Source: Escherichia phage T4
Length of the DNA stretch: 64,000 nt
Sequence record: OZ209023.1
Reading direction: 5' to 3' (one strand)
Position 1 is the stretch's first letter. Each line of letters starts with the position of its first letter. Below are positions 20,569 to 63,231 of this stretch, piece by piece. Made by a program: the position numbers and the translations under genes. The notes under the pieces were generated by a model. The model was given only the letters and a program-made list of their open reading frames with translations, did not search any database and was not told the DNA's origin.

Positions 20569-20598
20569 ACTATACCATAGTCTTGTCAGCTTGTAAAC
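20569..20598 (-). promoter_or_regulatory. early promoter (GTTTAC / TATAGT)
   Basis: plus gtaaac 20593-20598, actata 20569-20574. Confidence 0.4.
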
Positions 20599-22025
20599 TA
20601 AAATTTTAATTCATTCGCCAAAGCATCTAACTGAGCTCGAGTCGATTCATTTCTTTGATAGCGATTCTGCTCAGCCTGAATCTGTTGTGAACCTGCTACT
20701 TCGTTCACTTCAGTTGGAGTAGAATCTTGTTCAATTTCTACCCATTTTTGATTTCCTTTTTGAACACCCATCAAAAACTTATTCCACTTATTCTTATCAC
20801 CATATCGTGATTTGATTTGCTTAATGAGTTGTTGTTCAGCAGCTGCTAGCTCCTCGGTTTCAATGACCGCAAGCATAAAATCGGCTGTTGCTGGAAGACC
20901 GGCAGATTCTGCAATATCGCTCATGTTAACATCGGAAGAGTCCCAAGCTTGTTTACCAACCTGTGCTGCAGTCCAAAGAACAGTTTCGGTTTCAACAGCC
21001 AGAGCACGTAATTCCTCTGCAATAGCTTTAACAGTTGTGTAACTATTTTCTGAATAAACTCTAATGCGGCAAGATTTACAAATACCTAGATAGTCGACAA
21101 TAATGATTGTTGGAACAAAATTCTTCTTGAGCTTCAATTCGTTTAAAAGTGATCGAAATGTATTAGCGTCTGCTCCACCAGTAGGATACTGTTTAACGAT
21201 TAAACGACCAAGAGTAGATTTCTCACGCCATTTTTCCATTTTTCCTTTATACTCAGCGTAAGAAATATGCCCATCATCAATGTCATCAAGAGAAACATCA
21301 AGCATATTAGCGTCAATACGTTTAGCACAGACTTCTTCTGCCATTTCCATGGAAATGTAAAGAACATTATGTCCGAGCTGTAAATAATCTGCCGCTAATG
21401 AACACAATCCTAATGATTTACCAACGTTAACGCCAGCCATTAAAACGTTCAGTGTTCCAGTTTCAGCTCCGCCTTTCGTAATTTTGTTCAGAATTCTGAG
21501 TTTAAATGGAACCTTACGAGCTTTATTCATATAAGATAGCCAACGTGCTTCGTAGTCATCCATCCAATCATGACCAACGTAACTATCAAATGAAATTGAT
21601 AATGCCTGGCGCATGATGTCAGGAATAGCACCAACATCCGGCATTTTCTTATTTCGTTTTTCCGGAGGAAGCTCAGCATTAGTTTGAATTTCGATTATTT
21701 TAGACGTAGCATTAAACATCGCCCTTTGCTGAACATATTTTTCTGTTTCTTTTACTAACCAGCTGTGGTCTTCCGGAGAATCAGCCAGTTTTGAAATAAG
21801 TGTTTTTACACCAGAATATTCTGTTTCAGTAAATGAACTATTTTCTAATGCAACATTTAACGCATTAATAGATGGAACGCTATGGTACTCATTAACATGA
21901 GATTTAATTAATTTGAATGTATTTTTAGCTGGACCACTTTCAAAATATTCTGAATCCATATATGGCCAAACTTTTGAAAAATAAGCTTGATCAAATATGA
22001 GATGAGAAAGAATAATTTCTACCAC
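20598..22025 (-). CDS. 41: replicative DNA helicase gp41 (DnaB-like)
   Basis: 475-aa ORF; Walker A GVNVGKS; length matches T4 gp41. Confidence 0.9.
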   Translation of the reverse strand: MVEIILSHLIFDQAYFSKVWPYMDSEYFESGPAKNTFKLIKSHVNEYHSVPSINALNVALENSSFTETEYSGVKTLISKLADSPEDHSWLVKETEKYVQQRAMFNATSKIIEIQTNAELPPEKRNKKMPDVGAIPDIMRQALSISFDSYVGHDWMDDYEARWLSYMNKARKVPFKLRILNKITKGGAETGTLNVLMAGVNVGKSLGLCSLAADYLQLGHNVLYISMEMAEEVCAKRIDANMLDVSLDDIDDGHISYAEYKGKMEKWREKSTLGRLIVKQYPTGGADANTFRSLLNELKLKKNFVPTIIIVDYLGICKSCRIRVYSENSYTTVKAIAEELRALAVETETVLWTAAQVGKQAWDSSDVNMSDIAESAGLPATADFMLAVIETEELAAAEQQLIKQIKSRYGDKNKWNKFLMGVQKGNQKWVEIEQDSTPTEVNEVAGSQQIQAEQNRYQRNESTRAQLDALANELKF

Positions 22026-46427: not shown

Positions 46428-46748
46428 TTATAGCGTAATCCATTCTCGTACTGTCTGAGTTACTACACGTTCTCGAAGCTCAACCAGTTCAACAGTAGGA
46501 ACTGCATAATACCAGTCAGAATGGTAAGAACCTGAGCGAGATTCATTTACAGCCACATGTACATTATGTTTTGGACTAAAATAAACACACTGACGATATT
46601 GGCATTTACCATCTTGCACCCAGTCTTCTATTTCGATAGGTTTAAGATAGTCGGAAAAATCGAAATCATAGTTTTCCGAAAATGCATCATGGTCTTCAAT
46701 GATTTCGCTCAGAACTGCATCAACATCTAATTTATTTTCAATATTCAT
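46428..46748 (-). CDS. hypothetical acidic protein
   Basis: 106-aa ORF. Confidence 0.5.
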   Translation of the reverse strand: MNIENKLDVDAVLSEIIEDHDAFSENYDFDFSDYLKPIEIEDWVQDGKCQYRQCVYFSPKHNVHVAVNESRSGSYHSDWYYAVPTVELVELRERVVTQTVREWITL

Positions 46749-47053
46749 TTTTCACACCACCAACTGCTTACTTCAAAATCGGGTTCGCCATGTTCCCAGA
46801 ACCAGGGGCCGATAGGAATCCACTTACCTTCATCGGTGACGTCATATTCTTCGGATTTAAGCCCAACGTATCGCCATTCGACTTCATAAGCGGTACCACC
46901 GATTACAACTGTGTTCTCGCCATACGGGTTAGACACAACAAAGTCTATACCTTCTGCTTTAGCTAACCAAATCATGTATTCATAGAGTTTATATTCCAGG
47001 TCGCCTTCTGTTCCATCGCCTAGAAAAATAATTTGTTCATTTAATTCTATCAT
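46745..47053 (-). CDS. hypothetical protein
   Basis: 102-aa ORF; overlapping stop/start with neighbours. Confidence 0.5.
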   Translation of the reverse strand: MIELNEQIIFLGDGTEGDLEYKLYEYMIWLAKAEGIDFVVSNPYGENTVVIGGTAYEVEWRYVGLKSEEYDVTDEGKWIPIGPWFWEHGEPDFEVSSWWCEK

Positions 47054-61722: not shown

Positions 61723-62043
61723 TTATTCTTTAAATCTAATCAATTTATTCATAGACTTTGAAACTTCGGCACGAACCTCATGTAGATTTTTGAGCTGTTC
61801 AAGACGCTGCGTATAGTAAGCAATTTCATCTTCTTCGAGACAGTCCTGCGAATCTTCTTTAAGATAACGTGCATAGTCCTGGAAAGCGTTACGGACTACT
61901 TCCTGGAAGTCATCAAGACTTTGAATTTTCTTAGGAGCAACAGATACACGACGAGGGGCAGTATAATACTCATAACCAAACCCTGCGCTTAATTGAGCCA
62001 TTAGTATTTTTCCTCTGGTTGGAACACTGCACGACAAGCCCAC
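61723..62043 (-). CDS. hypothetical small protein
   Basis: ORF of 92-106 aa depending on start. Confidence 0.45.
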
Positions 62044-62303
62044 ATACTGGCTTCTTTGAGTTTCGTTTTAGCAATAGTTAACTGATCGAGACTTTCAGCA
62101 TAATTCTTCGCGAATTCACAGTCTTCGCAATTATCTAGTGCTTCCCAGAATTCATCATATAAAGCATCAAAGATAAGTCCTAAACGAACTTCAGCGTCTT
62201 TAATAGCATTTACTTTACCGATTTTCTCTTCAGTATGTGGTTTATAACCCTTAATATCTTCAATCATATTTGACTTCCTCACCAGTACATAAATCGTATT
62301 CAA
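62001..62303 (-). CDS. hypothetical small protein
   Basis: ORF of 88-100 aa; GAGGAAG SD before internal Met. Confidence 0.45.
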
Positions 62304-62481
62304 CTAAACGAATAGGTTCATGAATGCCATAGCCTTGAACAGAAATTTCTGTCGTAGGATAAATTCCATCAATATCACCCATATTCCACGCTTCATTAAA
62401 TTGCTGTTCGCCTGAGTTACTAAACCACTCGGCGAAAGCATTTAGCACATCTTCAGAACCTTCAATAATTATCTTTGCCAT
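62260..62481 (-). CDS. hypothetical small acidic protein
   Basis: 73-aa ORF. Confidence 0.45.
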   Translation of the reverse strand: MAKIIIEGSEDVLNAFAEWFSNSGEQQFNEAWNMGDIDGIYPTTEISVQGYGIHEPIRLVEYDLCTGEEVKYD

Positions 62482-62843
62482 TACAAACTTTCAGTAAAGG
62501 TACGAGCGATAACGTCGCGCTGCTGTTCCGGAGTCAGAGAGTTAAAGCGAACTGCATAACCGGATACACGGATGGTCAGCTGCGGATATTTTTCCGGATG
62601 CTTAACTGCATCTTCCAGAGTTTCACGACGCAGAACGTTAACGTTCAGGTGTTGACCACCTTCAATTTTAACTGTAGGTTGTGGCTCAATTTCAATTTCA
62701 CGGGCATGCAAACCATAGAAAATTTCTGGGTCTACAAAAGAGTCCTCTTTAAAGGTTTTAGAGACAATAATTCGTGCTTGAATACCATCTTCAAAATAAA
62801 TAGTACCTTTATGTGTGCCTTCAAGAATTTGATATGCTTTCAT
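62481..62843 (-). CDS. autonomous glycyl-radical cofactor (GrcA/YfiD-like; T4 Y06I-type)
   Basis: 120-aa ORF with C-terminal glycyl radical motif RVSGYAVRF; 3' half visibly more G+C-rich than surrounding phage DNA. Confidence 0.8.
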
Positions 62844-62850
62844 ATAAACC

Positions 62851-63231
62851 TCAATTAGAAAATAAATTTATCCAAGATTGTTCTTTAATTAAAAATGGCT
62901 CAGAATCATATGCCATTAAACTTTGCGTAATTAATCCTTTAAAAGGTCCATCAATAAATTCCATGGTAAAATATGGAATTTTATTCATTAGCCGTGCATT
63001 AGGAGCAGTGCACAAAACTCTGCATCCTTTGAATACGCCTTTTTGTAATTTGTATTGCTTGGGATAAAATTCGCTCAAAATGTTATTTTTTGCCAAAATT
63101 TCAAAATGATTCACCAATTTATTTTTAATAGTTTTTGGCGAAAAATAAAGATATTCGAAAAGCTGAGTGTCTGTCATCATTGCATTCCGATTACGAAAAA
63201 CTGTGGACGAGTAATACCACCAATGCAACAT
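62851..63231 (-). CDS. hypothetical protein
   Basis: 126-aa ORF. Confidence 0.45.

Follow-up and report, generated by a model that had tools for sequence, protein, structure and literature searches.

The closest described relatives of gene vs.6 of Escherichia phage T4 are GrcA (YfiD) of Escherichia coli (PDB 6owr; TIGR04365), which like the phage product is a small stand-alone protein, and the C-terminal part of pyruvate formate-lyase (PFL). In the available text of PMC8683613, YfiD and the T4 protein Y06I, the product of vs.6, are described after Wagner et al. (2001; Knappe group) as spare parts of about 14 kDa and as the only two validated spare parts of PFL, both of which receive a glycyl radical from the PFL activase PFL-AE and restore activity in vitro to PFL after its cleavage by oxygen at Gly734. 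This glycine carries the radical in PFL and is where the enzyme is cut; the disordered residues 1–60 of YfiD contribute to activation and to the binding of cleaved PFL, and its residues 61–127 form a structured domain copying PFL residues 693–759 (PMC8683613). We analyzed vs.6 in a 64,000-nucleotide stretch of the T4 sequence record OZ209023.1 (hereafter the window), where an initial annotation had pointed to a GrcA-like gene with a host-like 3' half. The explanation that we find best overall, and hold with high confidence, is that vs.6 is a chimera, a PFL spare part whose 3' tract has been overwritten by host grcA more than once.

The C-terminal 60 residues of Vs.6 are identical to those of E. 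coli GrcA, including the RVSGY loop, and the N-terminal halves of the two proteins are distantly homologous. Vs.6 differs in being seven residues shorter, in having an N-terminal half that is only about 31% identical, and in location, vs.6 lying in a phage early-region cluster and grcA next to ung. PflB residues 697–759 share the same fold element and radical loop (50 of 63 residues identical), but PflB is a 759-residue enzyme, and the T4 tract derives from grcA, not pflB. Homologues of Vs.6 in other phages (PHROG 1209) have the same two-part architecture and a near-invariant C-terminal domain. Most of them (RB16, RB43, KP15, CC31, and T5-like phages) use phage-type codons in the 3' part and are 70–84% identical to any bacterial grcA, whereas only the Tequatrovirus/Mosigvirus/Jiaodavirus clade has a near-identical host tract.

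A second system for comparison, and the nearest precedent for the mosaic, is provided by psbA and psbD of cyanophages, host-like photosystem genes with intragenic recombination between host and phage (Sullivan et al. 2006, PMC1484495, in its available text). Going by the same text, cyanophage psbA resembles vs.6 as a phage copy of a damage-prone, fast-turnover host part that sustains energy metabolism after shut-off, and as a gene mosaic with segments exchanged between host and phage. Compared with psbA as described there, vs.6 concerns PFL and not photosystem II, and enterobacterial hosts; its mosaic consists of a single tract with sharp boundaries, which coincides with a structural domain, is essentially host-identical, and has been replaced in parallel in two phage genera on two host genera. 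Two marks of a psbA-type mosaic are found in vs.6, where the tract is 98.9% identical to host DNA and the 5' half 56%, the level of shuffled sequence, and where the tract nests in the clade of its own host in two phage–host pairs (93% and 91% bootstrap support).

Identity and composition of the 3' tract

The host-derived tract of vs.6 (62481–62665; see Table 1 for all features) shares 183 of its 185 bases (98.9%) with grcA in all 5,426 complete E. coli genomes and contains a perfect identity run of 178 nt (62488–62665). The two mismatches are synonymous and fall in the last two codons, which read AGT TTG in T4 and AGC CTG in E. coli. Directly upstream of 62665 the identity to grcA collapses; the boundary, initially placed at about 62660, lies exactly at 62665/62666. 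The 5' half of vs.6 had no coverage in the 5,426 E. coli genomes, in which no place spanned at least 80% of the query, and its global alignment with the 5' half of grcA gave 56% DNA identity, a value to be read against 55.5 ± 3.5% for shuffled sequence. In the rest of the 64-kb window, no megablast match to E. coli genomes was found besides the vs.6 tract. Each E. coli genome also has other matching places, far weaker than grcA, which are taken to be pflB and its paralogues, as suggested by matches of the tract of phage JD18 to pflB and tdcE. High nucleotide identity to E. coli grcA, proposed in the initial annotation as the mark of a host origin, is what the comparison returned. Its claim that the 3' half was taken recently from host grcA agrees with this identity and with that of the control phages encoding the same tail, RB16 and RB43, whose tail DNA is only 82–84% identical to E. 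coli grcA.

Identities to other bacteria were determined over a common 168 nt in a comparison set of 80 bacterial grcA genes; a Klebsiella aerogenes record (L168) was excluded from the comparisons because its grcA is frameshifted. For the T4 tract, the identity is 100% to E. coli, 98.8% to a cryptic Escherichia species, 92.3% to Citrobacter, the nearest outside Escherichia, 88% to Klebsiella pneumoniae, and 83% to Salmonella. The donor of the tract is Escherichia specifically. The K. pneumoniae grcA sequence used was taken from one of several PLSDB "plasmid" records that are chromosome-sized and contain grcA and pflB, such as CP125156.1 (5.37 Mb) and NZ_OL790696.1 (4.80 Mb).

A G+C-rich 3' half joined to an A+T-rich 5' half had also been noted in the initial annotation, and the computed composition is indeed not uniform. 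The 3' half has a GC content of 0.48 and a GC content at third codon positions (GC3) of 0.41, the 5' half 0.34 and 0.19, respectively, and the whole 64-kb window has a GC content of 0.34. Segments of 183 nt as GC-rich as the 3' half of vs.6 make up 0.12% of those within the 64 kb and occur in three places. The other two are 20823–21027, within a 475-residue open reading frame (ORF; 20598–22025) that we take to be the gene 41 helicase, and 46745–46968, in the ORF upstream of one that is presumably nrdC; neither gave a megablast match in E. coli genomes. The codons CTG (five), CCG (three), and CGC (two) are present in the vs.6 tract and are all missing from the 5' half; in T4 they account for 7%, 16%, and 11% of the Leu, Pro, and Arg codons. 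The mean relative synonymous codon usage (RSCU) of the tract is within the lowest 5% of T4 60-codon windows.

Host correspondence and origin of the tract

Searches of phage records with grcA from two hosts gave reciprocal results. With E. coli grcA as the query, 624 phage records were at least 95% identical (Tequatrovirus, together with Mosigvirus such as RB69), with a common start base, and about 106 further records, mainly of Klebsiella phages, were 80–90% identical. With K. pneumoniae grcA, 106 phage records were 95–99% identical, those listed being all Klebsiella-type T4-like phages, and 526 records were 80–90% identical, those listed being E. coli-type phages. Among the matches listed to K. 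pneumoniae grcA were KPV15 (98.2%), KP17 (97.6%), and Nispero and PSE-D1 (97.1%). A Salmonella grcA query, which was aimed at a Salmonella-derived tract and serves as a negative control, found no phage record above 90%. Over the 168 nt, KPV15 is 87% identical to E. coli grcA and 97.6% to that of K. pneumoniae, with a 140-nt perfect run, and JD18 (Jiaodavirus) is 87.5% and 95.8% identical (87% and 95.4% in the database search), against 100% and 88% for T4. KPV15 and JD18 carry the Klebsiella-type residues LLDAVEH, not LEDAVKH, and the compositional step in JD18 (GC rising from 0.37 to 0.55 between the 5' and 3' halves) is larger than in T4. In short, the E. coli phages (Tequatrovirus and Mosigvirus) carry the E. 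coli tract and Jiaodavirus the K. pneumoniae tract.

The same grouping was obtained in a neighbour-joining tree of 98 tracts with 500 bootstrap replicates, in which ten Tequatrovirus/Mosigvirus tracts join E. coli and Escherichia sp. (93%) and the JD18 and KPV15 tracts join K. pneumoniae (91%). A single clade of phage tracts was recovered in 0 of 500 replicates. A phylogeny of the C-terminal domain had been suggested in the initial annotation as a further check on the host origin, and it places the T4 group within Escherichia grcA. A third candidate for host tracking was an IMG/VR contig whose tract shows 91% identity to Yersinia grcA; as its grcA is of the bacterial type and adjoins ung, the contig was rejected as a fragment of bacterial DNA. 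In the IMG/VR copy of KPV15, a frameshift splits vs.6 (about 1500–1863) and places the phage N-part and the Klebsiella C-part in different frames, which could be a sequencing error or a pseudogene.

Convergence, that is, DNA identity arising from protein constraint and a host-like codon preference with no transfer of DNA, might be suspected from the strong constraint on the C-terminal 60 residues in all phage homologues (Ka, the nonsynonymous divergence, about 0) and from the phages that match residue variants of the hosts while lacking a host-like tract: at codons 76–82, KP15 has the Klebsiella-type LLDAVEH, and RB16 and RB43 the E. coli-type LEDAVKH, all in phage-type codons. Such residue matches without host-like DNA could reflect protein-level selection or old short conversion patches. 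As an account of the T4 tract, convergence is nevertheless extremely improbable. Back-translation of the same 60 residues with T4 codon usage gave 77.1 ± 2.2% identity over 100,000 trials, none of which exceeded 86.1%, and the observed 98.9% thus exceeds what protein conservation leads one to expect, the condition on which the initial annotation had made a host origin depend. A perfect run of 178 nt is unreachable by codon preference, and the codons of the tract are, as seen above, unusual for T4. RB16 encodes exactly the same 60 residues with DNA that is 83.9% identical to E. coli grcA, and the synonymous divergence (Ks) between the two tracts is saturated (Ks about 2, Ka 0), compared with a Ks of 0.05 between T4 and E. 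coli. RB43, KP15, and CC31 encode nearly the same tail, and the DNA of these phages and of RB16 is 75–84% identical to any of the 80 bacterial grcA genes. That the tract is an artefact, either host reads misassembled into the phage genome or a change acquired in laboratory stocks of T4, a phage grown on E. coli for decades, can for practical purposes be dismissed: more than 600 phage genomes that come from many sources and were sequenced independently have it, the Sanger-era record X04567 being one of them; its junction is fixed and keeps the reading frame; and Klebsiella phages carry the Klebsiella version.

DNA identity by itself gives no direction, and the bacterial grcA 3' half could in principle derive from T4-like phages. 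This reverse transfer is very unlikely. The grcA 3' tracts of the 80 bacterial species diverge gradually in step with relatedness (the E. coli tract is 98.8% identical to that of Escherichia sp., 92% to Citrobacter, and 88% to K. pneumoniae) and grcA stays next to ung, both in E. coli and in the Yersinia-like fragment, by which transfer from phage to host is effectively ruled out. In addition, the tract has the composition of the host (GC 0.48–0.57) and not of the phage, two phage genera match two different hosts, and the phage-type 5' half is found in no E. coli genome. One ancient capture in the T-even ancestor, followed by divergence parallel to that of the hosts, would account for the same 5' junction in all phages with a host-like tract, but the shared junction is explained by the lack of DNA similarity upstream of it. 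A single old capture would moreover make the phage–host distance at least as large as the host–host distance, whereas T4 and E. coli are at distance 0 over the 168 nt and KPV15 and K. pneumoniae at 2.4%, with E. coli and K. pneumoniae 12% apart. Since the phage tracts were never monophyletic in the bootstrap replicates, a single old capture with subsequent co-divergence is likewise effectively ruled out, and we give it a very low probability.

Repeated host-to-phage homologous recombination that overwrote the glycyl-radical domain remains the best reading. Host grcA has recently overwritten the 3' 185 nt of vs.6, nearly the whole structured radical domain, and the 5' half is an old form of the GrcA N-terminal half that has adapted to the phage. 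Both phage groups share one 5' junction, between AAA(A/G)T and TGAAGG, and the DNA upstream of it is no more grcA-like than shuffled sequence. At the 3' end, the return to phage-type sequence occurs about 25 nt before the stop codon in KPV15 and JD18, about 10 nt before it in RB69, and within the last two codons in T4, and in OES_C-2 the third codon before the stop is a phage-type GAG, after which the E. coli AGC CTG runs up to the stop. Every T4-like phage in the alignment, whether or not it has a host-like tract, shows the TAATG overlap with vs.5, where E. coli has TAAGG. The tract thus ends at or inside the limits of similarity, the pattern predicted by homologous (patch) recombination. T4 fragments host DNA and has a very active UvsX-dependent recombination that readily recombines the phage with homologous cytosine-containing plasmid DNA. 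Judging from the junction pattern, homologous recombination between phage and host DNA is the likely route.

The age of the tract can be approached by comparing T4 with RB69. In the flanking genes vs.8, vs.7, vs.5, vs.4, and regB, Ks ranges from 0.78 to 2.4; in vs.6, it is 0.39 for the 5' half and 0.09 for the 3' tract (Fisher p = 0.012 between the halves). The low Ks of the tract indicates that it is much younger than the split of the two genera, which points to more than plain inheritance within the E. coli phages, and either separate capture from E. coli by each genus or spread between phages would explain this.

Some of the results weigh against the reading that vs.6 is a PFL spare part repeatedly overwritten from the host, or limit it. 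Two host-specific events are firm, but the total count is uncertain, and the tract shared by T4 and RB69 may reflect exchange from phage to phage. The tract of phage Killian differs from E. coli at 8 of the 168 bases (95.2%), and Tequatroviruses isolated on Yersinia, Proteus, Citrobacter, and Hafnia keep the E. coli-type tract. A different E. coli allele as the source of the Killian tract was considered and rejected, as no match above 95.2% to its 3' region was found in the E. coli genomes; given this ceiling, it is better read as an older, decayed copy. The Killian tract and the E. coli-type tracts kept on other hosts suggest that replacement is too infrequent to follow every host switch. On the protein level, Vs.6 scores 153.3 bits over residues 20–120 against the NCBIfam GrcA equivalog TIGR04365, below the cut-off of 170 (E. 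coli GrcA, 233.9 bits), because its N-terminal half is divergent. Finally, PFL rescue by the T4 protein is an in vitro result of others, and its role in infection is putative.

A stronger form of the idea, in which recurring gene conversion keeps the vs.6 tract in step with the grcA of the current host and virus and host genes evolve in concert, is tentative and, in our judgement, rather doubtful. If it holds, the near-identity would make further conversion easy, and the tract would be a built-in record of the host species in which a T-even lineage recently replicated, as well as a stretch of shared identity promoting exchange between co-infecting phages.

The PFL-rescue activity of the T4 protein has already been published (Wagner et al. 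2001), and neither the gene nor its function is therefore new. Literature searches on Y06I, on vs.6, on YfiD together with T4, and on GrcA together with phage, with Wagner et al. (2001) and the 2003 T4 review outside their scope, returned no description of the mosaic or of host tracking; a prior mention of the nucleotide mosaic in Wagner et al. (2001) or in the T4 genome review is possible. The new element is that part of a gene in the best-studied of the lytic phages has been overwritten by chromosomal DNA of the host, a clean natural example with base-precise boundaries and a parallel case in phages of another host genus. The tract is the only high-identity E. coli DNA of T4 within the 64 kb examined. 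This makes vs.6 a tractable system for measuring host-to-phage gene conversion, in which it can be asked whether matching of the host domain affects fitness or simply follows, as a neutral consequence, from the very active recombination of T4. The picture known from psbA, in which a damage-prone host part is refreshed from the host, is extended to enteric phages and to anaerobic metabolism. The tract is also suggested as a sequence marker that would tell in which hosts T4-like therapeutic phages have recently grown.

Family membership and target enzyme

The feature is phage T4 gene vs.6 (Y06I), encoding an autonomous glycyl radical cofactor of 120 residues. Over the 1.4 kb surrounding it, identity is 100% to several phage T4 records and 99.7% to RefSeq T4, in which the product is named "autonomous glycyl radical cofactor GrcA". 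The C-terminal GrcA/YfiD-like glycyl-radical signature that the initial annotation had recognized in this ORF is present, and the protein matches the Pfam family Gly_radical (PF01228) with E = 2.8e-18 and 66.8 bits (cut-off 22.2). Among solved structures, E. coli YfiD/GrcA is the closest to it (PDB 6owr, E = 8.6e-42), and PFL residues 697–759 come next (E = 5e-26, 79% identical). From the alignments to YfiD and to this part of PFL, Gly95 of Vs.6 is equivalent to Gly102 of GrcA and Gly734 of PFL.

BLASTP aligned Vs.6 residues 22–120 with GrcA residues 28–127, and the C-terminal domain is 100% identical to GrcA residues 68–127. As the structured domain of GrcA comprises residues 61–127, the host-derived tract essentially equals the structured radical domain. 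For the N-terminal halves alone, profiles of nine phage and ten bacterial sequences were compared with hhalign, which gave a probability of 92%, E = 6e-7, and 31% identity over 48 columns. Based on this profile homology, the 5' half is an old phage-adapted derivative of a grcA-like gene, and the whole gene, not just its 3' half, descends from a grcA-like ancestor. The 5' half matches positions 1–60 of the model phrog_1209, the function of which is listed as unknown in PHROGs. Homologues of vs.6 were identified in 1,588 phage records, comprising T4-like, T5-like, and jumbo phages, and the gene is conserved in all T4-like genomes compared in an earlier study (PMC1524935).

In the mechanism given in the literature, host PFL-AE installs the glycyl radical on Vs.6, and the radical-bearing protein docks into PFL that lacks its oxygen-cut C-terminus (from Gly734) and restores its activity. 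During infection, host genes cease to be expressed and T4 breaks down the host chromosome. The infected cell can therefore make no new PflB or GrcA, and a phage spare part would sustain fermentative production of acetyl-CoA and formate in the low-oxygen gut. This role in infection is put forward as an inference.

The initial annotation had proposed the rescue of either oxygen-damaged NrdD or host PFL. The PFL part agrees with the published in vitro work; the NrdD part has little support, as the domain is of the PFL type. A function as spare part for phage NrdD, or for some glycyl radical enzyme other than host PFL, might be supported by an early comparative paper that, on the Gly_radical match alone, proposed an involvement in nucleotide metabolism (PMC1524935), and by the Aeromonas T4-like phages PX29 (GU396103.1) and phiWae14 (LC778249.1), in which, unlike in T4, the vs.6 homologue adjoins nrdG. 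We regard such a function as unlikely for T4, where the domain is identical to that of host GrcA and 79% (50 of 63 residues) identical to PFL 697–759, no NrdD chain was found among the PDB matches to Vs.6 up to E = 10, and rescue of cleaved PFL by Y06I has been reported in vitro (PMC8683613, in its available text). A preference for PFL as the target enzyme in T4 leaves room for other arrangements elsewhere: nrdG encodes the activase of anaerobic ribonucleotide reductase, and its position in the two Aeromonas phages hints at a link to NrdD/NrdG there.

Genomic context of vs.6

The coordinates of vs.6 and of its parts are given in Table 1. In the RefSeq annotation, the gene is part of a tightly packed early-region run that comprises denV, vs.8, vs.7, vs.6, vs.5, vs.4, vs.3, and regB. 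It is a stand-alone gene, as vs.7 upstream has its own stop codon and vs.5 downstream starts at the vs.6 stop. The GAGG motif upstream of vs.6 overlaps the TGA stop of vs.7. Scans for promoters, terminators, and Rfam families around vs.6 gave nothing above background.

Table 1. Positions in the window of vs.6, its two halves, and associated sequence elements.
Feature	Position	Strand	Remarks
vs.6 (Y06I) coding sequence	62481..62843	minus	120 aa + stop; from ORF list, identity to T4 records, RefSeq GrcA annotation, Pfam, and PDB
Host-derived tract, codons 61–120 + stop	62481..62665	minus	Corresponds to E. coli GrcA residues 68–127
Phage-type 5' half, codons 1–59 + first base of codon 60	62666..62843	minus	A+T-rich
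Gly95 codon, predicted radical-bearing glycine in RVSGY	62559..62561	minus	From translation and YfiD/PFL alignments
GAGG, Shine-Dalgarno-like motif	62849..62852	minus	Ends 5 nt upstream of the vs.6 ATG; sequence pattern only
TAATG, vs.6 stop overlapping vs.5 start	62479..62483	minus	Phage-type; 3' limit of the host-derived tract

Two genes downstream of vs.6, the product of vs.4 (62001–62267, minus strand) has a Pfam match to the Acb2/Tad1 hairpin domain (PF24729, E = 1.1e-19), whose family consists of phage proteins sequestering cyclic-nucleotide immune signals; we take T4 Vs.4 to be the published Acb2. Compared with RefSeq T4 (NC_000866.4), the window differs in four places (62626, 62432, and 62293–62294). 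At 62626, within the host-derived tract, the window has G, as does E. coli grcA, and RefSeq has A, which changes Arg73 to His. At 62432, an indel of 1 nt gives a vs.5 ORF of 73 residues in the window versus 58 in RefSeq (74 in RB69), and at 62293–62294 there are two adjacent mismatches. The RefSeq variants at these sites look like old sequencing errors or strain differences. A plus-strand ORF of 127 residues with a TTG start (62475–62858) runs antisense across all of vs.6 and most likely arises as a side effect of the conserved gene that it opposes.

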